Shown here in pieces: positions 2,897 through 28,885 of a stretch of DNA of 30,991 nt. Where the stretch lies: UHGV virus genome UHGV-0237462. The stretch is one strand, 5' to 3'. This stretch comes from a virus. Position numbers and translations under genes: made by a program. Positions within the stretch are counted from its first letter, which is position 1. Every line of letters starts with the position of its first letter. The notes under the pieces were generated by a model. That model had not been told where the DNA came from and did not search any database. It worked only from the letters and a program-made list of their open reading frames with translations.

Positions 2897-5800
2897 GCGT
2901 CGTATCCCCCCTGATCGCTGTAGTTACTCCTGGCTTTTGCCTTCAGCCTGCGTTCACGTTCATCAAGCTGGCGTGCCACCTCCCGCGCAATATCCTGCGC
3001 ACTTTGTCCTGGCTGCATCTGAATGATGATCTGCGTCGGTGCCTCAATCCGGTGAACGGGCGGCACAGTGGCTGCACGACTCACCATCGCTTCGCCGCCT
3101 TTCGCGGGAAGTGCCAAAGGATGCAACGGTGGAAGCTCTGCAGGCGCGGCAGCAACGCCCATCATTCCGGCAACAACGGCAGCCAGTGCAGCTGTATTTC
3201 TCCGGCTGGTCACATTTGCCGGGCCGTTAACAATTTCCGGCCCGTTTTCACCGACGATGCCAAACTGCCCGCGCGGGATATAGCCGCCGCTGTCATACAT
3301 CCCCGCAAAGCCATATCCCCATGACGGAAAACCACCCGATGGCATCATCACTTTGCCGTCTGCATTCACCGTCGCAGGTTGCTGACGCGTCACGCGTTCC
3401 GGCAGTTTTGCCTTTGCGGCCTCTTTACTGACAATGCCGAGTTTTTCCAGCAACCAGGATACGCCGGATTTCAGGGAGTCCAGCGGATGCATGACCATAT
3501 TCAGCCCTTCCGCCAGTGCCTCCCCGAATCGCCGCCCCATTGCCGCTGCACTCTGCAGTTCGGCAGAGGTCGACTTAACGGGCGTCAGCAGATCAGTAAA
3601 CCAGCCCCACAACGCCTGTACTTTGTCGCCAATCCACTGGAACACGGGCTTAAGCGGCTCGAATGCTGCACTGACGGGACCTGCCGCCGCTTTGAATCCT
3701 TCCACCACGCCACCAAGAAATGCGGTGATGGGTTGCCAGTATTTCCAGACAACCAGCGCCACGCCCGCCAGTGCAGTAACCACAAGACCTATCGGACTGA
3801 GCAGAGCACCTAACAGACCAGATACGGCATACAGGGCAACGCGCAGCATCGCCAGTGGACCAGATGCCAGTACTCGCAGCACCGTGCCTGCGGCGGCCAG
3901 TCCACCGCGTAGTGCTGCCAGTGGATTCATAAACATCACAGCAACCGCACGTAAACCGGATAATCCAGACCGCAAAAGTGCAACCGGCGCACCTGCTACA
4001 GTTTTCAGGACATTTCCCGTCAGTGATGCCGTGCGGCGCAAAGACGACAACAGCGCAGTAAGTAAACCTGCGGCGTTGCCCGATGAAGCAAGCCCGCGTC
4101 GCAGCAGTGCCAGTGGTGCGCCAGCCAGCCAGGACAACGCGCTGCTGGTTCGAGTTACTGCTGCCGTAACGGAAGGTAACGTTTTGATACCCAGCACAGA
4201 GAATCCCAGACGGATCACTGCCAGCGGCCCCAGAACTGCAGCCAGCGCCACCGCTAAGGTGCCGAGGCCTACGGTAACCGCAGCCACAACAGCCGCTACT
4301 TTCATCAGTGTGCCTGTCAGTTCCGGGTTAGCTTCCACCCAGCGGCGCAACGCCCCCGTGATGCTTTTCACCGTGTACAGAATATCCATCAGCGGCTGGC
4401 GCAGCGTTTCGCCCAGGCTGCTGAAGGTGTTCTGCGCTCCGGTTTTGACCAGCAACCACTGAGCAGAAAGTGAGTCTTTGTTGATGTCGGATTCTTTCTG
4501 CATGGAACCGAGCGCATCATTGCCCGCTGTCAGCTTTAACTGGCGCTGCAGTTCCGGCAGGTTGTTTGCCAGTTTCGCCGCGTCATCGCCAAACTCTTTA
4601 CCAAACAACATGGTCATGGCAGACAGACGCTTGTCCTGCGGCAGTGCGTTCACCTTCTCCAGCACGCGCTGGATGGTTCCCATCGCATCCTTCGTCATCT
4701 GCTTTTCAATCACTTCAGGATTGAGTTTCAGCAGATTCATCCCTTCAAAGAAACTCTTGCTTTGCATGGTGGCAATGGACAATTCACGCACCATCGCGTT
4801 TGCTGCACTGGCTGCAACCTCTGGCGCAGCGCCCAGTGTCAGAAAGGTGGAACCCAGCGCCGCCGCTTTACGATAATCCAGACGATCAGCCACACCGCCC
4901 AGGCGTTGCATGACATCAATGATGTCTGCCCCTTTCGACATGGCGTTATCATCCAGATAGTTCAGCGCATCACCGAGCTGTTCAATATTGCGGGTAGGGA
5001 TTTTGTAGAGCTGGGCGATTTTCCCCAGACTTTCTGACAGTTCATCCGCTGGCAGCTCAAAGGCTGTTGCCGCCTTTGCTGCCGTACTGGCGAAGGCCAG
5101 CAGGTCACGTTTCTGGTCTTCCCAGCTGTCGTCAGGGTTTGCGACGTTCATGCGTGCACCACCTTCAACCAGTGCAGCGAAATCCACCGCACCGTTTTCC
5201 ATCGGCAACTGTTCGCTGGCAGCCTTGATGGCATCCTGCATTTCATAAAAACGTGCAGTGCGGTTGCCATTATCGTCACGCAGACCATTGACCTGCTTTG
5301 CCACACCTTTCATGGCATCTTCTATGCTGGTATAGCTTTTTACTGCCGCCATCACTGGCGTCCCCATTGCCAACCCTGCAGCCGTGGTAGTGGCTCCGGC
5401 TCCTGCAATACGATCGCGCACCTCCAGCGAACGGGCATAACTGGCACGCGCCGCATTCATCCTGCGCTGAGCTTCCCCCAGTCGCTTCAGCCGCGCCTCC
5501 TGTTTCGACAGTTCCTGGTTATAACGTGATGTTTCACGGGCTAAACGGGCAGTTGCTCCCGCATCATCTTTCGCAGAAATTCCCGCCCGGTACAGTTCTG
5601 CACGCACAAGCGCCGTTTGCTTCTGCAAATATTTTTGTTGTTCTTCCAGGCGTTGGACTGCCAGCGTTTGCCGACCTAAAGCCACAAGGTGCCGTTGTGA
5701 TGGTTGTTCCATCGCCTCCAGCTCAGAGCTAAGCAAATTAGCCTTCTGTCTGGCATAGTTCAGCCTGTCGCCTAACTTCTTGTTATCGGCCTGCAGCTTG

Positions 5801-5970
5801 CGAAATTTTTCCAGGCTGTTACCCGCCTGATTGAGTTGCTTTAATGCGTCACGGGAGTTTCTGATTGCGCCAGCCAGCTCTTTCGAACTGGCTTGTGCAG
5901 CACGGAATGGGCGGGTGAGTTTGTCAACCGCATTAAGAATGACCTGCAGGCGCAGGTTGTTATCACTCAT
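2893..5970 (-). CDS. T: Tail tape measure protein gpT
   Basis: 1025 aa, coiled-coil N-terminal half, Ala/Gly-rich hydrophobic repeats in the middle; position after E/E-prime. Confidence 0.9.
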   Translation of the reverse strand: MSDNNLRLQVILNAVDKLTRPFRAAQASSKELAGAIRNSRDALKQLNQAGNSLEKFRKLQADNKKLGDRLNYARQKANLLSSELEAMEQPSQRHLVALGRQTLAVQRLEEQQKYLQKQTALVRAELYRAGISAKDDAGATARLARETSRYNQELSKQEARLKRLGEAQRRMNAARASYARSLEVRDRIAGAGATTTAAGLAMGTPVMAAVKSYTSIEDAMKGVAKQVNGLRDDNGNRTARFYEMQDAIKAASEQLPMENGAVDFAALVEGGARMNVANPDDSWEDQKRDLLAFASTAAKAATAFELPADELSESLGKIAQLYKIPTRNIEQLGDALNYLDDNAMSKGADIIDVMQRLGGVADRLDYRKAAALGSTFLTLGAAPEVAASAANAMVRELSIATMQSKSFFEGMNLLKLNPEVIEKQMTKDAMGTIQRVLEKVNALPQDKRLSAMTMLFGKEFGDDAAKLANNLPELQRQLKLTAGNDALGSMQKESDINKDSLSAQWLLVKTGAQNTFSSLGETLRQPLMDILYTVKSITGALRRWVEANPELTGTLMKVAAVVAAVTVGLGTLAVALAAVLGPLAVIRLGFSVLGIKTLPSVTAAVTRTSSALSWLAGAPLALLRRGLASSGNAAGLLTALLSSLRRTASLTGNVLKTVAGAPVALLRSGLSGLRAVAVMFMNPLAALRGGLAAAGTVLRVLASGPLAMLRVALYAVSGLLGALLSPIGLVVTALAGVALVVWKYWQPITAFLGGVVEGFKAAAGPVSAAFEPLKPVFQWIGDKVQALWGWFTDLLTPVKSTSAELQSAAAMGRRFGEALAEGLNMVMHPLDSLKSGVSWLLEKLGIVSKEAAKAKLPERVTRQQPATVNADGKVMMPSGGFPSWGYGFAGMYDSGGYIPRGQFGIVGENGPEIVNGPANVTSRRNTAALAAVVAGMMGVAAAPAELPPLHPLALPAKGGEAMVSRAATVPPVHRIEAPTQIIIQMQPGQSAQDIAREVARQLDERERRLKAKARSNYSDQGGYDA

Positions 5971-6399
5971 CGTTGGCCCCGCTTCTCTGAATCGCTTTAT
6001 ACCGCCATTCCAGCACTTCGGTCAGCGGCATAACGTCAGTAACGGATGGCGGCCAGTGAAAAATGGTGGCGATATCTGCCACCAGATCGTCAACCGTCAG
6101 GCTGTCGGTAAACCGGCAAGCACCGACTTCTTCAACAAAAAAGTGACAACCTCAACCGACATGGCAGTGAGATCTGCCGGGTCCATCTCTGCAATTTCCT
6201 GTGCAGTCAGTGCCGGGCTGGAGATGCGGGGGATCACGGTCATCATCGCGTTCACATCCATATCCATAATGGCCTGCAGGCGTGTACCGCGCAGCGCACC
6301 GGACTGCGGTTTACGCAGCACAATTTCGGTGATTTCAGTTTTACCACGCATGATGGGAGTATCCAGTTGAATGGTCTTTTCAGTCTGCTTATCGCTCAT
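5963..6399 (-). CDS. gpE+E-prime, product of a programmed -1 ribosomal frameshift
   Basis: Slippery T TTT TTG at 6142..6136 (minus strand) in the E zero frame (ACT TTT TTG); the -1 frame stays open from there to a TGA at 5965..5963, which overlaps the T start codon (ATGAGTGA). I translated the extension by hand with no internal stop. Confidence 0.7.
6097..6399 (-). CDS. E: Tail assembly chaperone gpE
   Basis: 100 aa; immediately upstream of T; contains slippery heptamer near its 3' end. Confidence 0.85.
   Translation of the reverse strand: MSDKQTEKTIQLDTPIMRGKTEITEIVLRKPQSGALRGTRLQAIMDMDVNAMMTVIPRISSPALTAQEIAEMDPADLTAMSVEVVTFLLKKSVLAGLPTA
6136..6142 (-). other. Slippery heptamer TTTTTTG for the E/E-prime frameshift
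   Basis: Read directly; same heptamer class as the P2 E/E-prime and lambda G/GT sites. Confidence 0.7.
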
Positions 6400-6453
6400 T
6401 TTGCTGTCCTGTAAATTGGGTTCTGGCGCGGTATCCCGCGCCGTTCAGATAGA

Positions 6454-6969
6454 TCAGAGGCCGAGGGCGTTGCGGTGCGCTTCCATCAGGTCCACACCGT
6501 CCACAATTTCCACCATGTTGATAAGGTCCACTTCATAGAGCACCTCACCATTGATGGTCAGCTTCGCGTAGCTGTTGGTACTGGTCACTTTGGTGGTGTT
6601 GCTTTCGCCCGTCTTCCACTCGCCGGAATCCACTTCTTTGTGACGTCCACGCACCACAAGCTCCACGGCCTGCACTTCCCCGGTATCGTCACGCTGGATA
6701 GAGCCAGTAAAGCGCAGCTGGATGCCATCCACAGTGGCTTTGCCTATCTGCTTAAACAGCAGCAGTTCAGTACCACCAATGGAAAATTCTGTGTCCAGAG
6801 CACTGTCATCAAGCCCCAGATCCACATCCACCGCCCCCGGCATTCCGCCGCCGCGATACTTCTCATATTTGCGGGTGAATTTCGGCAGCGTCAGCGACTC
6901 AACGATCCCCTGCCAGTTGTTCCCGTCGTTAAACAGGTTCAGGTGTTTTAATTTGCGTGGTAAAGCCAT
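6454..6969 (-). CDS. FII: Tail tube protein gpFII
   Basis: 171 aa; synteny FI-FII-E-T. Confidence 0.9.
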   Translation of the reverse strand: MALPRKLKHLNLFNDGNNWQGIVESLTLPKFTRKYEKYRGGGMPGAVDVDLGLDDSALDTEFSIGGTELLLFKQIGKATVDGIQLRFTGSIQRDDTGEVQAVELVVRGRHKEVDSGEWKTGESNTTKVTSTNSYAKLTINGEVLYEVDLINMVEIVDGVDLMEAHRNALGL

Positions 6970-6978
6970 GTTGTCCCC

Positions 6979-8151
6979 TTACGCGCTGACCTGGCTGGAG
7001 AAATTCACCAGGTACTGATCGGTGATGCGCTGACGCAGCATCAGGTTTTCAAGTGGCGGCACTGGCGTGTAGTCGTAGTCGATGGTGAGCTTCCCGGCTT
7101 TCAGAGTATCTTTGTCGTTCACCGACTCATCCAGCCAGCAATCACCACCAATGAGATAGCCCTGACTGACCAGGCTGCGCATTTTGGCGCGGATACCTTC
7201 GATAATGTCGCGGGCCAACGACGGGTTCAGCGGTTTGTCCACCGCCCACATATGCGCTTCTGCCATTGTGTCCATAAGTACTTGCGCCGTGCGGGTGTAG
7301 TTTTCGAAGGCAAAGAGCGGGTCATCACTCAGGCAGCGGGAACCCCAGAAGCGGAAACCGTCTTTGCGGATAAGGGTGGTGACGTCGTTCTGGTTCAGCA
7401 GTCCCGCATCTGTTGCCGTGTCCTGCAGATCCCAGAACACATCAGCAGAAATTCCGGTGACACCGTTAACGCCCACGTTGGACAGGCTTTTGTGCCATCC
7501 GGTCTGCTCATCAATTTTGGCGCGCAAACCAAGCGCACGGGCGGTGGCATAAGCCGTTGCTTCGGCATTCAGCACCGTGTCCCAGCCAGTAAAGTCGGGC
7601 CAGATCAGCATTCCTTCACGCTGACTGAAGTTTTCACGGTAAGTGATCGCCTCCTGCACTGTCTTGCAGCCATACGCTGACAGGTAAGCAAACCCACGCA
7701 GGCTTTGCGCCACGCTCAGCAACTCAGTAGCAACGGCTTTGTTATCGTGGCCTGGCACGCCGAGAATGCGCGGTTTAACGCCGAGCTGTGACTGTGCAGA
7801 TAACAGAGCTTTCATGCCTGTTTTTTTACCTTCAGCAGTCACTGCGCCGATGATATTGGTCGTGGTTTCTTCTTCCGTTTCACCCTGCGGCACACGCACA
7901 ACAACGGTCACGGGTTTTGCCTGGTCAGCGATGGCATCCAGCGAACGGGCCAGCGTGCCGGACTCACCCGCTTTACCGCTGGCAGTCAGCACATCAGTGA
8001 TCAGCACGGGTTTATTAAGAGGAAACATTTTTGCATCGGCATCATCGCCCGTGCAGACCATACCCACGATGGCGGTGCTCACCGTGGTAATGGATCGGGT
8101 GCCTTCGTTGATTTCAACAACGCGCACCCCGTGGTGGTAATCCTGAGCCAT
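6979..8151 (-). CDS. FI: Contractile tail sheath protein gpFI
   Basis: 390 aa; P2 FI-like sequence and position. Confidence 0.9.
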
Positions 8152-8293: not shown

Positions 8294-8860
8294 TCAGGGG
8301 GATTCATTACTCTTATTTGCCGGAAATTTTCTATAAATGGTAGAAACGCCTACATCAAAAATCAGTGCAATACGCTGTCTTGATTCTCCGGCCTCGAGTA
8401 AACGCCCAATCTGTGCCCACTGTTTGGTGGTCAACTTAGGACGGCGTCCACCTACTCTGCCTTTGGCACGAGCTGCAGCCAGCCCTGCCCTAGTACGTTC
8501 AACTATCAGTTCGCGTTCCATTTCAGCCAGGGCCCCCATGACATGAAAAAAGAAACGGCCCATTGGGGTGCTGGTATCAATACTGTCAGTCAGGCTTCGG
8601 AAATTCACGCCACGCTGACGCAACTCTTCTATCAGCGTAACAAGATGCCGCATACTGCGCCCCAACCTGTCTAGCTTCCAGACAACCAGCGTGTCTCCTG
8701 CCGATAGTGTCCTGAGCAGTTTTTTCAGCCCCGGTCTGTCGGACTTAGTGCCACTGATTTTATCCTCAAAAATCCGCTCACATCCCGCGCAGTTCAGTGC
8801 ATTACGTTGCAAATCGGTGTTCTGGTCATTTGTTGACACGCGTACATAGCCAATAAGCAT
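8294..8860 (-). CDS. Serine-recombinase DNA invertase (Gin/Pin/Hin/Cin family)
   Basis: 188 aa; N-terminus MLIGYVRVSTNDQNTDLQRNAL and GRFFFHVMGALAEMERELI are near-identical to Gin/Hin invertases as I recall them; C-terminal HTH. Confidence 0.9.
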   Translation of the reverse strand: MLIGYVRVSTNDQNTDLQRNALNCAGCERIFEDKISGTKSDRPGLKKLLRTLSAGDTLVVWKLDRLGRSMRHLVTLIEELRQRGVNFRSLTDSIDTSTPMGRFFFHVMGALAEMERELIVERTRAGLAAARAKGRVGGRRPKLTTKQWAQIGRLLEAGESRQRIALIFDVGVSTIYRKFPANKSNESP

Positions 8861-8915
8861 GATTATCCCCCTGAATAAAAACCGGGGATGATGCCAGTTA
8901 GCTGTTACCTCTGCA

Positions 8916-8941
8916 TTTTCTTAAACGTTGGTTTGGGAGAA
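8916..8941. repeat. Left (invertase-proximal) 26-bp inversion crossover site
   Basis: TTTTCTTAAACG TT GGTTTGGGAGAA: 12-bp half-sites around a 2-bp core, gix/hix/cix-like; the inner half-site is the exact reverse complement of the inner half-site of the partner at 10512..10537. Confidence 0.7.
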
Positions 8942-9271
8942 GCCAGATATATCATTCAGCGAGGAGCTAATGCCAATGGTGCATGGATTCGCTGGTCAGA
9001 TGGTGCAATAGAAGTCTTTGGAACGGGTGGGTCTAATGATAATGGACTGGCTAAAGTCGTTTACCCAATTGCACTGCCTAAACTTTCACGTTTTATCAGT
9101 ATCGCGGAAAGAATAAGAACAGATTACGAGAGCACACCTAATAATGTTCACGTTTCAATGATCGTGGATGATCAGGTAACAAATACCGGTTTTTATGCCC
9201 GCTGCCAGATGTACGACGGCAGACCATCATCAAATGCTTTTTCCTGGAGGGTTTATTGTGCGCCTGTTTAA
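8930..9271 (+). CDS. Silent alternative tail-fibre C-terminal cassette (no own start; would fuse to the H constant region after inversion)
   Basis: Open frame from the crossover core to TAA at 9269-9271; the codon phase at the core (G TT) matches the phase of H at the partner core (C TT), so inversion would give an in-frame H constant part plus 113 new C-terminal residues beginning GLGEARY. Confidence 0.6.
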   Translation, partial: GLGEARYIIQRGANANGAWIRWSDGAIEVFGTGGSNDNGLAKVVYPIALPKLSRFISIAERIRTDYESTPNNVHVSMIVDDQVTNTGFYARCQMYDGRPSSNAFSWRVYCAPV

Positions 9272-9455
9272 TCCAGTTACTTTGACTGAAGTAATCCCCG
9301 GCCTTCATGTTGTGACCGGGGCTATTGAATTACCGGAGGACAACTGGTTTTTTACTATGACAGAAATTCCTCAGGGCATGGAGCTAACAATTAATGAGAA
9401 AGGGGAACCAATATTGATTGAGGTTAATCAGTCTCAGGGAAAGCAGGCCAAATAA
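9258..9455 (+). CDS. Putative alternative tail-fibre assembly chaperone, apparently truncated (about 65 codons)
   Basis: GTG at 9258 preceded by GGAGG (9246-9250) with a 7-nt spacer; start overlaps the stop of the alternative fibre cassette; lacks the C-terminal TSTAPDIxWP-type motif present in the 201-aa chaperone; 3' end overlaps the 3' end of the convergent chaperone gene. Confidence 0.4.
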   Translation: MRLFNPVTLTEVIPGLHVVTGAIELPEDNWFFTMTEIPQGMELTINEKGEPILIEVNQSQGKQAK

Positions 9456-10029
9456 TATCAGGCGCGGTGCTGGTATCTGTTGCCGTCACCGCGTCAATGT
9501 AATCCAGCACGGCGTTAAGCCGGGTTGTTTCTGCCTGCATCAGCTTCCGTCCGGCCTGTAATTTCAGCTGAATCAGACTGATGGAAGCTATTGCAGCATC
9601 AATCAGTGACTGACGCTGTGCTTCTGCCGCGTCTACTGCGGCGCTATGCCGTGCCTCAGTATCGGTCACCCATTTCTCACCATCCCATTTATCGTATGGT
9701 GTTAACGGGGCGATAGTTGTGGTATTTTCAGGGTAATCACCCGGAGCTGTGATTTCTTTTGACTCTCCCGTTTTGGTGCTATAGACGATTTCACCGCGAT
9801 GGTCTGGCACATATTCCCATGAGTTAAAATTTGCAGAACGACAGATAGCATAACCCACCTTATATGTGCCAGGGGCATCTAAACAGGAATATGCAGGAAT
9901 ACCGACACCAATGGCAAGATATTCAGTTGAAGCTGAAATATATTCCTGCGTCTCACTATCATAGTTATAAACGGTAATATCCCCCGACTTTGTAGCAATA
10001 AGCTCACTATTTAATATTGCTTTATCCAT
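9424..10029 (-). CDS. G: Tail fibre assembly chaperone (P2 gpG / lambda Tfa family)
   Basis: 201 aa; C-terminal LDYIDAVTATDTSTAPDIIWPAFP is characteristic of Tfa proteins; start overlaps H stop. Confidence 0.85.
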   Translation of the reverse strand: MDKAILNSELIATKSGDITVYNYDSETQEYISASTEYLAIGVGIPAYSCLDAPGTYKVGYAICRSANFNSWEYVPDHRGEIVYSTKTGESKEITAPGDYPENTTTIAPLTPYDKWDGEKWVTDTEARHSAAVDAAEAQRQSLIDAAIASISLIQLKLQAGRKLMQAETTRLNAVLDYIDAVTATDTSTAPDIIWPAFPETD

Positions 10030-11573
10030 TATGCTGCTCTCACGATATAGTTAAATGCAATGTTTCGAGGGCGATTCTCTGATGCTGTTGGTACAACCCT
10101 GGATGCATCAAAACTGAATCCTGTGTAAGGGGTATTTTTTGTTTCATATGTGCCTAGGTTATTATAGATATTTCGCTTAGCTTGAGATGCTAAGGCAAAA
10201 GCACCAGTACCAGTCTGTAACCTGAAAGTTGCTGTATCAATGGTGCCTTTAACTTCATTTATAAATCCTGTTATATTCCGAATGGTATCTCCCTGTGACG
10301 AAAGCAAGCTACGGTTAGTATCAATCCCTCTTCCATCATCCCAGCCACGAATAAACTCACCGCGTAAATCAGGCAATTTATTTGTCGGGTAAACCTTTGC
10401 CAGTTCCGGGTATTCTTCAGCAGAAAAAGCCGCCCCGTTGCATTTCAGCCAGCCTGTTGGCGGAGTGGCGGAAGGCCACGGAACAGGCACGCCAACGGGT
10501 AATGCCGAACCTTCTCCCAAACCAAGGTATGTGAGAAGACCAGCTACATCCTTTCCACTCAAATTAGTCAGCGTATTGTCCAGCGGTTGTTTACCTGCCA
10601 GCGCATTAAGCATTGTCGTGGCAAAGTTCGGATCATTCCCCAGTGCCGCCGCCAGTTCGTTCAGTGTATCCAGTGCCGCAGGTGCAGAACCCACCATTCC
10701 TGCAATCGCCGATTTCACAAAAGCCGTAGTGGCAATCTGTGTATTATTGACCGACTGCGCCGCCGTAGGGGCTGTTGGCGTTCCGGTGAGTGCCGGACTC
10801 GACAGCGGCGCTTTCAGTGCCAGCGCATTGTTAATGGTGGTACTGAATTTCGGATCATTGTTAATGGCTACGGCTATTTCTTTCAGCGTGTCCAGCGTGG
10901 CTGGCGCACCATTAATAAGGGCCGTCAGTGCCGCCTGTACAAACGCAGTGGTCGCAACCTGCGTGGTATTATTCCCCGCCGCTGGCGTTGGCGCTTTGGG
11001 GGTTCCGGTAAATGTCGGGCTGGCTTTTGGCGCGTACTGTGAATGCGGGTCCGGTGCGGCAAGATGTTTTGCCATCTGATCATCCGCGTACACCTTCAGC
11101 TCCAGTGCCTTGTCATCCACATACTTGCGGGTTGCCAGCACTACAGCAGGGTCGATTTTCAGGGTGATATTGTCCGTGCTGCTGGTAATCAGCACCATGC
11201 GCACGGTCTGAGTGCGCCCGCTACCTTCAGCCAGTTGCGGCTTATAGCTTTCCGGGCAGTTGCCCACGGCAATCAATGCCCCGGACTCATCAAACAAGCC
11301 CACTTCACGTATCCACCAACCGCCCTCGTTTTCAGGGATCACCTGTTCGGCAATAATCTGGCTGCTGTTCTGCGGGTCGATATAAAGCATATTCAGCGCA
11401 GCCCGGCGTTTCTCATTTACCAGTGCCGTCTGCTTTGCGTCCGGCGTTGGCAATACTCCACCGCCATCGCCCACCGCCATATGGGTAATTTTTAGCGGCA
11501 CACCGAGCGCGGCGGCGCTGGCAAGTTTCGCCGCGCCAATATCCGTCAGCAGGGTATAAAATTTTGTGCTCAT
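10029..11573 (-). CDS. H: Tail fibre protein gpH (constant N-terminal 350 aa plus invertible C-terminal 164 aa)
   Basis: 514 aa; synteny I-H-G; contains the inner crossover site at codon 350. Confidence 0.9.
   Translation of the reverse strand: MSTKFYTLLTDIGAAKLASAAALGVPLKITHMAVGDGGGVLPTPDAKQTALVNEKRRAALNMLYIDPQNSSQIIAEQVIPENEGGWWIREVGLFDESGALIAVGNCPESYKPQLAEGSGRTQTVRMVLITSSTDNITLKIDPAVVLATRKYVDDKALELKVYADDQMAKHLAAPDPHSQYAPKASPTFTGTPKAPTPAAGNNTTQVATTAFVQAALTALINGAPATLDTLKEIAVAINNDPKFSTTINNALALKAPLSSPALTGTPTAPTAAQSVNNTQIATTAFVKSAIAGMVGSAPAALDTLNELAAALGNDPNFATTMLNALAGKQPLDNTLTNLSGKDVAGLLTYLGLGEGSALPVGVPVPWPSATPPTGWLKCNGAAFSAEEYPELAKVYPTNKLPDLRGEFIRGWDDGRGIDTNRSLLSSQGDTIRNITGFINEVKGTIDTATFRLQTGTGAFALASQAKRNIYNNLGTYETKNTPYTGFSFDASRVVPTASENRPRNIAFNYIVRAA
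10512..10537. repeat. Right 26-bp inversion crossover site, inside gene H
   Basis: TTCTCCCAAACC AA GGTATGTGAGAA; inverted orientation relative to the site at 8916..8941. Confidence 0.7.
10581..11021 (-). repeat. Tandem duplication of a ~73-aa module inside tail fibre H
   Basis: Protein residues ~185-257 and ~258-331 are clearly similar (PTAP..NNTTQVATTAFV..GAPA.LDTL.E.A.A..NDP.F.TT..NALA.K.PL). Confidence 0.5.
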
Positions 11574-12175
11574 GGATTCACTCTCATTGTGTCAATAACA
11601 TGGACCGCCCCGCCTTCATGCGCGGTGCCACCGGAAATAATCGTTTCGTTGATATACGGATAGATCGTGATTTCTTCGCCAAGATAGCTGGCGGCTCCCA
11701 CCCAATGCGGGCCGCTGGTCTGCAGATTGATGGACATGCCGATCATGTGGCGGCTACATGGTTTGGCATCGCTTATCAGTCGCTCAAGTTCCAGATAGGT
11801 ATCTTCAGTGATGCCCTGGTCCTGCACGCCGATATCCAGGCGAAACGTGCCCGGTGTTTCTCCGGTCTGCCACCACTCAATAATGCGGATCAGGAATCCG
11901 AACGGCTCCACCACCCGCCGCACGGCACTGGTGGTCCCTTTATGCTGATGAATATAAAAAGCATCCTTCACCACCTGGCGCTTGACGCTTTCTGTCCAGC
12001 CCTCGTCCCAGCGATCCACAGAGAACGCCCAGGCGAGATAAGGCAGGAAACTGACCGGACAGGTTGCCGGATTCCACAAGTCACGAAGCGGCACCTGCAG
12101 ATCAGAAATCCCGCTGCAGGTTTGCGCCAGTCGGCGCTCCAGTGGTGTTGAACCCGGTGGCAGCAGACTATTCAT
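11570..12175 (-). CDS. I: Baseplate assembly protein gpI
   Basis: 201 aa; synteny J-I-H. Confidence 0.9.
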   Translation of the reverse strand: MNSLLPPGSTPLERRLAQTCSGISDLQVPLRDLWNPATCPVSFLPYLAWAFSVDRWDEGWTESVKRQVVKDAFYIHQHKGTTSAVRRVVEPFGFLIRIIEWWQTGETPGTFRLDIGVQDQGITEDTYLELERLISDAKPCSRHMIGMSINLQTSGPHWVGAASYLGEEITIYPYINETIISGGTAHEGGAVHVIDTMRVNP

Positions 12176-22824: not shown

Positions 22825-23523
22825 TTATTTGTTTCTTCTTTGTTCACGCCTTGTCTTGGCTTCGATAAGGCGTTGAGGTTCAGTGTAAAGCCGTTCTAAA
22901 AAAAGATAGGTAAAATCTTCAAGATCCTCAGCAGCAGCTTTATCCAAAATACCTTCATGCGCTCCATCATTTCCGTCATCTTTAACGCATTCAGCTAGTT
23001 CCCTTAAAGCTTCAGGCAGTAGATGATTATCAAATAACCACTCCATTCTTAACCCTAGGCTTCTCCTTATTTTTTGCGCAGGCCCTTGCTCCCCATCAGG
23101 AAGAAGTCCTTTTGTGGCATAATCAAGGCAAAGCCTAAACATGGTTGCTGCTGCATTATAACAACCTATAGCCAAACATTTCGCCCCTTCCTCATATGCA
23201 CTATTGATATGCTCAGGTAAGAACTCTGGTGGCTCCTCTACTGCTAAGTCTGCCGGTGATATAGGTCTAACAACCTCTGCAACTTCCTTTAAGCCGAATA
23301 TTCCACTTTCCCAATTATAGCCATCTAAAGTTTTATTTTTCGTTAAAGGTCTGCAAAGAAAAATTGTCGTTTTATGACACTCTCGGCAAACACAATAGAC
23401 CTCGTACTCGTATGTTTTACCCCCGCCCAATGCATTGTAAACCCTAGTGCAATTCAGCCCATTAACATCAAACGCTATTTTTTGTGATCCACATCGTGGA
23501 CAGTCATCCACTAACATAACCAT
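22825..23523 (-). CDS. Cargo protein: N-terminal zinc ribbon plus C-terminal helical domain resembling DUF4145 (possible HEPN-like effector), 232 aa
   Basis: ATG at 23523 with GGGAGGAG 8 nt upstream; CPRC ... CVCREC four-Cys ribbon; C-terminal half shows the pattern I associate with DUF4145 (..GNDGAHEG.. flanked by amphipathic helices); sits between cos and the 3' end of Q, converging on Q with an 8-bp gap. Confidence 0.65.
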   Translation of the reverse strand: MVMLVDDCPRCGSQKIAFDVNGLNCTRVYNALGGGKTYEYEVYCVCRECHKTTIFLCRPLTKNKTLDGYNWESGIFGLKEVAEVVRPISPADLAVEEPPEFLPEHINSAYEEGAKCLAIGCYNAAATMFRLCLDYATKGLLPDGEQGPAQKIRRSLGLRMEWLFDNHLLPEALRELAECVKDDGNDGAHEGILDKAAAEDLEDFTYLFLERLYTEPQRLIEAKTRREQRRNK

Positions 23524-23812: not shown

Positions 23813-24424
23813 CTACGTAACCACAGTTAATGTGTGCATCCTGTCTCGAATTGCATCACACGTCTCATCAAAAAGCTTGGTGATGGTTGTACGGTTCAAC
23901 TCCGCCTCTTTCCAATAATTTTGCCCGTCAAATTCTGGATCGCTATGCTTAAACGATATTGACTCTGAAAGGCATTCCTTCCGGAAACGGTCCAAGATTA
24001 TATAAACCTCTGGTGAGATGAACGGTTTGTTAGATTCAACACTTGTAACAAAAGTATTAAATGCATCAAAAAAAACTTTCAACCTTCTAAATTTTCTCTC
24101 TTCAAATGGTTCGTTGGGGTCAACATGATCCAGCGCAGGCCTCAGCTTAAGCACGCTTTCTCTGGTTTCAAACATCGAATTCCAAATGAGACTATATGCT
24201 GATAACTCCTTATCAAAATACGCTTTCGTTACATAAACAGAATTGTCTAACTTAGCCTTTATTCTTTCATTAGTTGCACTCAGTTGTGATTGAAATTCAG
24301 CAATATCTTTGTTTAGCCGCGACTTATATCTTTCTAAATAAACTTTCCCGATCCAAACAAATATGCTAGATGCAACAAAAGACACCCCACCCAACGAAGC
24401 CAGAACTTTAAAGACTAAATCCAT
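23813..24424 (-). CDS. AT-rich cargo protein, N-terminal TM anchor plus soluble helical domain, 203 aa
   Basis: ATG at 24424 with GGTGGGGG upstream; hydrophobic N-terminus (VLASLGGVSFVASSIFVWIG); own consensus -10 upstream and terminator downstream; visibly AT-rich. Confidence 0.65.
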   Translation of the reverse strand: MDLVFKVLASLGGVSFVASSIFVWIGKVYLERYKSRLNKDIAEFQSQLSATNERIKAKLDNSVYVTKAYFDKELSAYSLIWNSMFETRESVLKLRPALDHVDPNEPFEERKFRRLKVFFDAFNTFVTSVESNKPFISPEVYIILDRFRKECLSESISFKHSDPEFDGQNYWKEAELNRTTITKLFDETCDAIRDRMHTLTVVT

Positions 24425-25392: not shown

Positions 25393-27807
25393 TTAATACA
25401 GGTTCCGCCACTTATCATCTTCCTGCAAACGCTGGTTCCGATAGAAGACACGCAGGCCTGCTCCTGACGGAATACTGCCGCCGCGAAGGAGTAAATCGAC
25501 CTCTTTCTCGCTGCCATCAAATCCTCTGGACTTCAGTTCATAGACGAGCTGCTGTCGTTGATGGTCTGTAATTCGCTGTTTGTAGTCTCTACGCCGTTTC
25601 GGTTTCACCAGGCGTAACCTTGCAGCCAGTTCCCGGCGCTCTTTTTTGTTCATACTGTGCAGGTAATCGTGCAACTCCTTGTCATCCATGTGGGTAATGT
25701 CCGTTCTGGTATCCCCATCAGCTGATTTGTCTTTCCCTTGTTGGTTCAAATTTTCAGCAAGGGGACAGTTATTGCCACGAGTCCAAGGGGCGCAAGCGCC
25801 CTGGTCGGCAGCCGCCTCCTGAACGTCAACGGCCTTACGAACCATTTTCCACTTCACTGCATGAGTGCAGATCTTGCCCTCTGCAATGGGTGACCAGATG
25901 CCATAAATACGAATACCGTGATCGCCATAGGCGGTTGGCTCTTCGTTGATTTCATAAGCGGTTCTGATGAGGTGATATTTGCGGGGAACCAGTACGCCGC
26001 CCTGCTTCATGATGTAGGTGGCAAAACAACCAGCATCAGCAGCAGCCAGGATGGCATCAAGGCGCGGGTTATCCAGTACCGGCGCACCTGCTTTTTTGTC
26101 ACCCTGTTGCCTTGCCGCCTGACCAGCCAGCAATCGCAGTTCACGGTAAGCCTGACGCCCCGGAATGCCAAAGAAGCGGAATTGCTGAACACGATGCAGA
26201 GACGCCCAGGCATTAACGTATTCAGCGTTATCACGCAGGGATTTACCCGTTTCCTTACTGATCTCGCCAGCCAGACCACGCCCGTCAATATTCTTACTGA
26301 TATATTTCGCAATGTAGCTTGTCGGCGTTCCTTTGCGCGGGTTTATCAGCTCAGACTTAAAGCGTGGCCCCGTGTTATTGCCCAGCTCCTCGCGGTCTTC
26401 TCGGATGGCAAACTTACGCAACAATGCAGTAATGGCGCGGCGGTCTTTTTTGCGCATGAAACACAACAGGTGCCAGTGAACTGTGCCGTCATGATGCGGC
26501 TCAGCCACCCGCACGCCATACCAGCGCAACCCGGCTTTGTGCATAGCCTTACGAAATGCAGCAAACATGCCGACCAGATAATCGCTGCTTTGTCTTACTG
26601 TCGCGTTGGTCCAGGTCGGGTTTGGCCTGCCGTTATTTAGCGTGGAATGGAAACGTGACGGACAGGTGATGGTGTAGAAAACGGCGCAGTCACCACGCAT
26701 TTCCGCGATAAGCTCCAGGCCTTTAACACAGGCCATCATCTCGTTGCGGCGATGCGCCGGGTTGCTGCTGCTGGCGTTTACCACATCCTCCATGTTCAGC
26801 GTGTCGCCGTCTTCGTTCACCAGTTCATGAGAACGGAAAAACTCCAGCGACTTACGGCGCTGCTCACGTTTATGCATCACGGCTTCATAGCTGACATAGG
26901 GAGATGCTTTTTTGCTGACAAGGCAGACAGCACGCAACTGCTCTTCCCGCCATTCGCAACGCATCTTCCATAATTTCCGATACCACCAGTCGGCGCACAG
27001 CATACGCGCCAGCGAACCCGGAATGAGTTCATAAGGCACAGGTTTGCGGCGGTTTCTTTTCCGGCGGAGTTGCTCAAACGCAGGCGGTATGACATCCAGT
27101 CGCAGGGTTTCTGCAGCCACCTTTTCCCATGTCTTGCGGATTTCTTCTGGCTTAACATCATCGGAGGCGTACAAATCACCACAAGCGGCATCAAGACACA
27201 TGCTCATATGCGCAGCGACAAGGGTAGACAGGCGTTTCACCTGATCCTGACTCATTTCAGGCAGGATCAGCAGACCGTCCAGCCCTTCATGGCTTGCCAT
27301 AAAACGAAAAGATGCAGATAGCTGGCTGTCGCGTATATGCTCCAGTCGTTCCAGACATGGCTTAATCGTCTCACGCAAATAGCGGGAATAAGCCTTTGGC
27401 CTGCCCAGGCTGCTGAAATATTCAATACGTTGCATCAGCGGCTTGCTGATATGGGAAGGCTGGGCGTTGACGTCAGCCAGAATGACCATGTCTGGATTAA
27501 AACGCTGCTGCTCATGCGCCATCTTTGCCCGGCTAATGAGCTTATCCTGCTCCATTTCGCGTTGGACAGGATCACGGGATTCATTAAAGAAATAACGCTC
27601 CCAGACCTGATCACTCAGTGCCTCGCGGCGCAGTTGTTCCTGCTCGTTATCGGTAGCGTACAGAGTGATCAGGTTTGAAAGCGCAGAAACCGGCGCAACT
27701 TCCGCCGGGTCCAGATAAGGGTTAATGGCCTTTTTCGGGCTGTTCCATGAGAATGCTGCGGCGACCTTGTTAAAGCCGCTGCAGTTGTTCATATCAGCAT
27801 GGCTCAT
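25393..27807 (-). CDS. A: Replication initiation endonuclease gpA (rolling-circle)
   Basis: 804 aa; P2/186 A-like size and position; start overlaps the Dam stop (ATGA). Confidence 0.9.
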
Positions 27808-28661
27808 GCACGCACTCCGTACACGGCAGAACTATCCACGCCACGCGAAGGATCAAATCCCACCCAGCAGCGCGGCCCGGAAACAGCGATGATTTCTGTT
27901 GCAGATTTACTCTCACCAGCTGCTACACCGATGCTGCGTTTTGCCTTGATGTAGTGGTGAGTAAAATTGCGATACAGCGAACGGATCAGGGATGTATCAC
28001 TGTTAGAAACAATGACCGGATGTCCTTCTGATGACCGATGTTCAAGAACGGATGCCAGGTGATACTGGTCATCTTCAGTGAAACCATCAGTGTGATAGCC
28101 GGAAAACGTACCGTCATACGGCGGATCGCAATACACCACATCCCCCACCTGCAGCATCGCCAGCGTTTCATCAAAGCTTGCGCAGATAAACGTTGCACGC
28201 TGGGCTTTCTCTGCAAATGCGCGAATTTCTTTTTCAGGGAAATACGGATTTTTATAATTACCGTAGGGAATGTTGAAATGCCCGCTCTTGTTATAGCGAC
28301 ATAAACCACGGTAACCGTGACGATTGAGATACAGGAAATATACCGCTTTCATGAAATCAGTAATTTCAGTGGAGTAATTAAACTCCTGCCTTATGTTGTA
28401 ATAAGCCACCTCCCTGTTTGCGATCTCAAATAAAACTCTGGCGCGAGATATAAACGATTCACAATCAGAGGCAACCTTTTTATAGAGGTTGATTAAATCA
28501 GGATTAATATCCGCAACCAGATAGCTGGGGTAATCCGTCTCCATCATCACAGCACAGGAACCCGCGAAAGGTTCAACCAGTCGCGGGCCAGCAGGAAGGT
28601 GTTTTTTCAGTTCGGACATAATGGCGGTTTTATTTCCCGCCCATTTCAGGATGGTGCTCAT
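27804..28661 (-). CDS. dam: DNA adenine methyltransferase (Dam family)
   Basis: ATG at 28661 with GGAGG 6 nt upstream; N-terminal ILKWAGNK and catalytic DPPY motif (YCDPPYDG). Confidence 0.85.
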
Positions 28662-28885
28662 ACAGCACCTCCGTTGTAATGTTTGCCTTTCAGCTCTGCG
28701 ATTTCCTGACAGGTAATGCAAAGCTGCACACCCGGAATGGCACGGCGGCGTGCTGGCGGAATTGGCGCTTCACACTCAACGCAAAGCACGCGGGACACGC
28801 CCGGCGTTTTGGCACGGGCAGCACGGATATGACGTTGGCGTTCTTCTTCAACTCGCTGCTGTACGAGATCCATTGCATCAGCCAT
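28658..28885 (-). CDS. TraR/DksA-family C4 zinc-finger protein
   Basis: 75 aa; CVEC ... CITC four-Cys motif typical of TraR/DksA C-termini; stop overlaps the Dam start. Confidence 0.7.
   Translation of the reverse strand: MADAMDLVQQRVEEERQRHIRAARAKTPGVSRVLCVECEAPIPPARRRAIPGVQLCITCQEIAELKGKHYNGGAV

Follow-up and report, generated by a model that had tools for sequence, protein, structure and literature searches.

The 65-codon ORF that follows the alternative fibre tip in the invertible segment of this prophage is, as judged from sequence, an intact member of a conserved family of about 60 residues that consists only of the N-terminal domain of Tfa-type fibre chaperones and is unnamed in Pfam, NCBIfam and PHROGs. 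Our preferred reading, to which we assign a probability of roughly 0.65, is that this N-domain-only protein is a minimal chaperone or cap for the Gp53-like alternative tip, and that the DNA inversion switch to which it belongs is asymmetric and unbroken. The tip and the short ORF form a co-inherited, translationally coupled module, and the switch probably works in both orientations.

The inversion switch and the short ORF

The window, by which we mean the whole stretch of DNA that was analysed (31 kb), is an essentially complete P2/186-like prophage. The tail genes D, U and T lie on the minus strand, as do the tube gene (6454–6969) and the sheath gene (6979–8151), and baseplate and head genes, replication gene A in the early region (25393–27807) and a CII/CP76 regulator are also present. 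The sheath and fibre genes flank the switch region, and gpI (11570–12175) lies beyond the fibre gene. The switch region contains an intact serine DNA invertase gene of the Hin/Gin/Cin/Pin type (8294–8860, minus strand, 188 aa; Resolvase E 2.2e-53, HTH_7 E 3e-15, PHROG 125 DNA invertase E 1.6e-100) and a 1.6 kb invertible segment bounded by an inverted repeat, the left, invertase-proximal arm of which (8916–8942, 27 nt) is 81% complementary to the right arm (10511–10537). The right crossover site lies within the fibre ORF, at the codons for ...TYLGLGE..., and the core common to both sites is TTGGTTTGGGAGAAG. The fibre gene (10029–11573, minus strand, 514 aa) is of the P2 gpH type (Phage_tail_fib E 6.5e-65). 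Its constant part extends to around aa 349, and the current variable tip, with a Collar domain at aa 361–408 (Pfam, E 1.5e-14), is encoded at 10029–10523, inside the invertible segment. The cognate of this currently expressed tip is a two-domain Tfa of 201 aa (9424–10029, minus strand; Caudo_TAP E 3.5e-30, PHROG 105 E 1.9e-94).

The opposite strand of the segment carries the alternative tip ORF (8888–9271, plus strand), which is promoterless and silent in the present orientation. Its part at 8930–9271 is the alternative fibre C-terminal tip cassette, comprising about 112 aa past the crossover point (LGEARYIIQRGANANGAWIRWSDG...YCAPV*), which matches PHROG 2557 (E 1.1e-20) and, weakly and below the cut-off, Gp53-like_C (E 0.0088). 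Computed recombination at the centre of the sites joins the constant part of the fibre to the alternative tip with the reading frame kept (...LTYLGLGE|ARYIIQRG...), giving a product that reads ...LTYLGLGEARYIIQRG... with the junction ...LTYLGLGE|ARYIIQRGANANGAW.... The region thus combines the features that identify an inversion switch, namely an adjacent serine invertase, paired inverted sites of which one falls within the fibre ORF, and an in-frame exchange of the fibre C-terminus. The same invertase type and site arrangement are found in the Mu G/Gin, P1 C/Cin and e14 P/Pin systems and in two closely related E. coli segments from P2-like prophages, L003 and L005, as are convergent tip-plus-chaperone cassettes with overlapping 3' ends, one for each orientation. 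In the classical switches and in L003 and L005, however, a two-domain chaperone is encoded on both sides (146–150 aa in L003 and L005), whereas one side of the present segment encodes a one-domain protein of 65 aa, and the segment is around 0.3 kb shorter than the two-Tfa segments.

The short ORF (9258–9455, plus strand, 65 codons) starts with GTG (VRLFNP...) after the alternative tip cassette and encodes a core of aa 1–55 followed by a variable 10 aa tail. A Shine–Dalgarno sequence, GGAGG (9244–9248, plus strand), lies 9 nt upstream of the GTG within the last codons of the tip cassette, and the ORF starts 14 nt before the stop codon of the tip ORF. In every locus compared the tip ORF is directly upstream of the short ORF on the same strand; the 14 nt overlap is kept in 11 of 12 loci and a GGAG-type motif stands at a fixed distance from the start in all 12. 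The maximal ORF at this position extends over 9195–9455 (plus strand). The corresponding 86 aa version from the ATG at 9195 was rejected as the true gene because most homologues begin with ATG at the MRLFNP position, and because the upstream extension is unconserved and falls within the tip ORF.

At its 3' end the short ORF overlaps the convergent gene for the 201-aa Tfa by 32 nt (9424–9455). Convergent overlaps of 20–29 nt occur in five of the loci compared (L001, L003, L005, L010 and L016), and in L003 and L005, which encode two full-length chaperones of 146 and 150 aa, respectively, the overlap is 29 nt. Since segments with two full-length chaperones overlap likewise, the overlap is not a sign of deletion, and its interpretation as a deletion scar was rejected. 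Searches of the 65-aa product against Pfam and NCBIfam matched no chaperone model, with no Caudo_TAP match at E ≤ 1; NCBIfam holds no model for the short ORF, the alternative tip or the 201-aa Tfa. The product does match positions 1–66 of the 145 positions of PHROG 5400 (E 1.2e-25), a family annotated as 'unknown function'. The descriptive statements of the first-pass annotation are all confirmed: the pairing of the current orientation with a full-length Tfa-type chaperone of 201 aa, the ORF of about 65 codons after the alternative cassette, the absence from its product of the C-terminal Tfa motif, and the 3' overlap with the convergent chaperone gene.

The short family and its relationship to Tfa proteins

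A word-indexed database search with the 65-aa product returned 123 homologues (E 1e-34 to 1e-12), all 123 of which are short (46–91 aa). Entries of 73 and 86 aa represent upstream start calls, the conserved start being M/V-RLFNP; the naturally short members have 57–65 aa and all stop at the domain boundary. These homologues represent at least eight enterobacterial genera (Escherichia, Enterobacter, Salmonella, Citrobacter, Hafnia, Pseudescherichia, Xenorhabdus and Erwinia), and a scan of species-representative genomes adds Intestinirhabdus, Trabulsiella, Pantoea and Ca. Erwinia dacicola. The conserved core of about 55 residues has the pattern MRLFNPxTxTEVIPGxHDxxGAIELPxDNWFFxxxEIPxGxxLxVNxxGEPxL, and the stop codon follows 2–10 residues later. 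In two alignments (A1 and A2) the 65-aa product is 59–97% identical to 19 members, with 19 invariant columns. The identity of the tips and that of the short ORFs are weakly correlated across loci (r = 0.30), and we do not argue for co-evolution of the two. Invertible segments encoding short or N-domain-only Tfa proteins were not found described in the literature searched.

A Nei–Gojobori comparison of 12 loci from different taxa gave a mean pS of 0.72, which is saturated, a mean pN of 0.22 and a median dN/dS of around 0.13. The core of the short ORF is under purifying selection and, as it overlaps no other gene, the selection acts on the short protein itself; together with the homologue matches, the dN/dS value also indicates that the short ORF is not a chance ORF. 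Neither frameshifts nor internal stops were found in the short ORF in 12 loci from different genera, and a permissive tblastn search (E ≤ 10) of the loci tested found no same-strand remnant of a Tfa C-domain behind the short ORF, on which ground a recent deletion of the C-domain was rejected. The first-pass annotation had described the chaperone of the alternative orientation as apparently truncated, as though a deletion had removed its distal part at this locus, and had proposed on this basis that the switch may be asymmetric. The asymmetry stands, in that a two-domain protein of 201 aa is opposed to a one-domain protein of 65 aa, whereas its reading as truncation or breakage does not: the ORF matches naturally short, full-length members of a family, same-strand remnants are absent, and pairs of full-length chaperone genes overlap in the same way.

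More distant relatives connect the short family to two-domain chaperones. When 1.84 billion representatives were searched exhaustively with an HMM profile of the short family, 51 proteins were found, of which the closest are short and the more distant (123–180 aa) match over residues 1–57 and continue into a second domain. This second domain is Caudo_TAP in P0132, P0144, P0164 and gene_1 of Cronobacter phage JK004, Phage_tail_APC in P0142 (with sub-threshold matches in P0140 and P0136) and DUF4376 in P0159, which suggests from the domain assignments that Caudo_TAP, Phage_tail_APC (PF16778) and DUF4376 may be interchangeable chaperone 'effector' modules. The product of JK004 gene_1 (128 aa) is 32% identical to the 65-aa product over 56 residues (tblastn E 6e-4) and continues through a Pro-rich linker into a classic C-domain (...WKLYRILLMRVD..WPIIPN); the tip cassette preceding it begins LGE...GENANGWYEIYSDG. 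It resembles the metagenomic protein P0132 (131 aa), from locus L022, in belonging to the same N-domain family (with 32% and around 40–54% identity to short forms, respectively) and in being preceded by a related GxNxNGW..SDG tip cassette, and both differ from the short forms in keeping the Pro-rich linker and the Caudo_TAP C-domain.

JK004 is a circular phage of 94 kb. In the region examined (L002, 1987–4387) a complete fibre gene, gene_3, is followed on the same strand by gene_2, an N-terminally incomplete LGE tip, and by the Tfa gene, gene_1, a layout reminiscent of one section of a fibre region with several cassettes that undergo inversion or shufflon-type rearrangement.

A profile–profile comparison of the short family with an alignment of canonical Tfa proteins (A3) using hhalign gave a probability of 89.7% (E 1.8e-6) and placed residues 20–60 opposite the DAVEIS...GK...ENGxPxxV region of canonical Tfa. 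On these profile comparisons, the 65-aa product and the N-domain of the two-domain Tfa chaperones are homologues. As with the Tfa proteins of the Caudo_TAP family (PF02413; lambda Tfa, P2 gpG and Mu U), the short ORF lies directly downstream of the fibre and co-oriented with it, and its product has a homologous N-domain and pairs with a specific tip type. It differs from them in the complete absence of the conserved helical domain at the C-terminus (...W.xYRxxLxRVD...WPxxP) by which Caudo_TAP is defined, and in its length of 57–65 aa, compared with around 125–200 aa for Tfa. In the published model of Tfa action, specificity lies with the variable N-domain, which binds to the tip of the fibre and remains on the virion in Mu, where it is reported to contribute to receptor recognition, while the conserved C-domain trimerizes and is the proposed driver of assembly (PMC9608196). 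Because tip binding is assigned to the N-domain by this model, the 65-aa protein would correspond to a stand-alone tip-binding domain.

Orientation of the switch and short forms at other loci

The fibre-fused junction was found as one contiguous match in 33 complete E. coli genomes and the silent, invertase-side junction in 67. These counts show that the switch flips; the orientation frequencies in lysogens reflect invertase activity and not fibre function. Many homologues lie on contigs of 1.2–1.7 kb, as expected if the sequenced population contains the segment both ways round. The module was found in the expressed orientation in Xenorhabdus khoisanae (L006/L017), in Enterobacter soli (L016) and on an E. 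coli contig (L011), and the segment of L011 recurs flipped in a related E. coli prophage (L010). In the X. khoisanae locus L006 the fibre segment appears to be frozen with the short-ORF module expressed.

Some of these loci carry additional genes near the switch. In L006, a P2-like cluster, a Tad2-like/DUF7823 gene (6599–7426), assigned to an anti-Thoeris-like family by precomputed Pfam annotation, occupies the usual invertase slot. In L010 and L011 an inserted N6_N4 methyltransferase gene (3152–3904 and 7038–7790, respectively) separates the invertase gene from that of the sheath; the invertase of this prophage is called as 161 aa, and the tblastn match to the invertase of the window covers 186 residues.

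The short ORF also occurs outside invertible segments. Two P2-like prophages identified in genome sequences, one in Erwinia sp. 9145 (L009) and the other in Ca. Erwinia dacicola (L015), have the gene order gpI, a fibre with the same tip type, the short ORF and the sheath, so that the short ORF is the sole gene between fibre and sheath; no invertase, no other Tfa and no Tfa C-domain was found anywhere in either locus. The genome of Ca. E. dacicola is a decaying one. A further pair of loci shows a long and a short form behind related tips: in L022 the tip is followed by the 131-aa P0132, and in L023, a non-invertible locus beside an integrase, a 53%-identical tip is followed by the 58-aa N-domain-only P0129, the N-domains of the two proteins being 54% identical. 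In a neighbour-joining distance tree, built on around 55 residues and carrying no support values, the short forms fall into at least three clades, which suggests that the C-domain may have been lost repeatedly. Some short forms end in tails (..DAPTK, ..DATPK.., ..ISPES..) similar to the sequence with which the Pro-rich linker begins in the long forms, and an ancient truncation in the linker is a plausible origin of the short form, although not an event of the locus in the window.

A comparable protein is encoded by the lytic podovirus LIMEzero of Pantoea (FR751545, L024). In the region 4836–6459 the fibre ORF46, which ends in Gp53-like_C (32.9 bits), is directly followed by ORF47, which encodes a protein of 60 aa (UniProt F4N9V0, 'Tail fiber assembly protein') comprising only the N-region of canonical Tfa (MRYFYSATTKGFY..DAVEIS..GK..). 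ORF47 shares with the window ORF a length of around 60 aa, the restriction to a Tfa N-region and the position immediately behind a fibre that ends in a Gp53-like_C tip. The two differ in that ORF47 has the canonical MxYFYSAxTxGFY N-region and not the MRLFNPxTxTE type, and in that LIMEzero is a lytic podovirus without an inversion switch. We regard ORF47 as a second, independent type of N-domain-only 'mini-Tfa'; literature searches found no experimental characterization of it. Gp53-like tips are also paired with full-length Tfas, as in L003, and the tip fold alone therefore does not dictate the short form.

Proposed role and alternative explanations

In the mechanism that we propose, the invertase would flip the 1.6 kb segment and join the constant region of the fibre in frame to the Gp53-like alternative tip, and the short ORF would then be transcribed and translated right behind the fused tip through translational coupling. 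The 65-aa product most likely binds the distal tip of the alternative fibre, where it would act as a minimal chaperone and/or as a tip cap that remains on the fibre. This activity would be exerted without the C-terminal helical trimerization domain, and the C-domain would be dispensable in this case. One point that speaks against such a role is that the Tfa model gives the assembly-driving trimerization to precisely the C-domain that is missing here. An AF2 model of the isolated 65-aa protein, of moderate quality (pLDDT 78, pTM 0.37), has four short strands and no significant structural neighbour in the PDB or BFVD; the top neighbour, itself non-significant, is LIMEzero ORF47, and a sequence search of the PDB with the family profile gave chance-level matches only. 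A model of this kind would fit a domain that folds on its partner and proves nothing. The gp25 chaperone of the myocyanophage Pam3, which has a C-terminal helical trimerization domain and is absent from virions, differs from the 65-aa protein, and no sequence or fold match between the two was found.

Three options for the alternative fibre had been put forward in the first-pass annotation, namely dependence on the other chaperone, loss of function, and use of the N-terminal chaperone domain only. The last of these is favoured by the match of residues 1–57 of the two-domain relatives and by the hhalign result. The first is, in our view, unlikely, although it survives better than the other alternatives. 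It holds that the short protein only recognizes the tip, and that a Tfa C-domain is needed from the 201-aa Tfa or from other prophages. Tfa and gp38-type proteins cross-complement, which counts in its favour, and there are many Tfa genes in E. coli, the Tfa part of the segment having matched 2737 of 5426 genomes. The C-domain is, moreover, the conserved part of Tfa and the proposed driver of trimerization (PMC9608196). However, the geometry of the segment places the 201-aa Tfa gene antisense to the fibre transcript in the alternative orientation, and the mechanism proposed for the C-domain, the tethering of three N-domains, is impossible for a C-domain that is supplied as a polypeptide of its own. 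Dependence on the 201-aa chaperone is also unsupported at the loci where the short ORF is the sole gene between fibre and sheath; L009, L015 and L023 have no Tfa C-domain within 6–10 kb, and in LIMEzero (43 kb, lytic) the annotation of the 13 kb that were inspected shows the short form alone.

It is more doubtful still that the short protein has another role, either solely as a receptor-binding adaptor or specificity subunit or in a function unrelated to the virion that rides along with the tip cassette. The 'unknown function' label of PHROG 5400 and the absence of a Pfam or NCBIfam model leave room for this, and an adhesin-like role is conceivable given that the N-domain of Mu Tfa stays on the virion and takes part in receptor recognition (PMC9608196). 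The homology of the short protein to Tfa N-domains argues against it, as does a fibre-linked role indicated by the invariable place directly after the fibre tip and by the translational coupling; the adhesin or cap variant overlaps with the preferred explanation and does not contradict it. Least probable of all, and by our estimate very improbable, is a decayed remnant of an old C-domain deletion that yields defective or poorly assembled alternative fibres and persists only through linkage to the switch. In its favour, the proposed assembly-driving domain is absent, the closest two-domain relatives show a possible ancestor, and the linker-like tails would fit a truncation in the linker of an ancestor. 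Against it, synonymous sites are saturated while the protein core is conserved (dN/dS around 0.13), the 12 loci from different genera are free of frameshifts and internal stops, the Shine–Dalgarno motif and tip overlap are conserved, no gene other than the short ORF follows the fibre in the non-invertible prophages, and short forms occur in a lytic phage and arise in more than one clade. A non-functional alternative fibre, the second of the options listed above, is unsupported for a family under purifying selection.

If the 65-aa protein is a minimal chaperone or cap, as we prefer, it may be one of a wider class. We tentatively consider, at odds slightly below even, that N-domain-only proteins of around 60 residues are widespread, unannotated minimal chaperones or caps that have arisen repeatedly, in the lineages of the window clade, P0129 (L023), P0146/P0158 and LIMEzero ORF47, and that the C-domain is dispensable for a class of small globular (Gp53-like) tips. 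Were this class real, the two-domain model of Tfa action would have to be revised, and fibres and tailocins could be retargeted by way of a very small protein. A family that is under selection and that is sometimes the sole post-fibre gene would mean that some tips need only a tip-binding partner, or else that this partner is in fact a virion-borne cap or adhesin. Such ORFs are at present annotated as 'hypothetical protein' or hidden in ORFs of 73 or 86 aa whose start is miscalled, and prophage annotation and host-range prediction would consequently misjudge such switches as half-dead. Likewise, P2-type phages and R-type tailocins engineered with Gp53-like tips would need the partner of 60 aa to be co-transferred.

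The prophage in the window has further features outside the switch region. A D12-class (Dam-type) N6-adenine methyltransferase gene (27804–28721, minus strand; E 4.4e-76) adjoins replication gene A. Two cargo ORFs (22825–23523 and 23813–24424, both on the minus strand) lie near the portal/terminase end, which corresponds to the old/tin-type hotspot of P2. Searches of Pfam and PADLOC found no match for the 203-aa cargo product, and the 232-aa product matches DUF4145 (E 4.5e-7) and, weakly, PD-T7-4 of PADLOC (E 9e-7); the two ORFs may represent anti-phage defence cargo.
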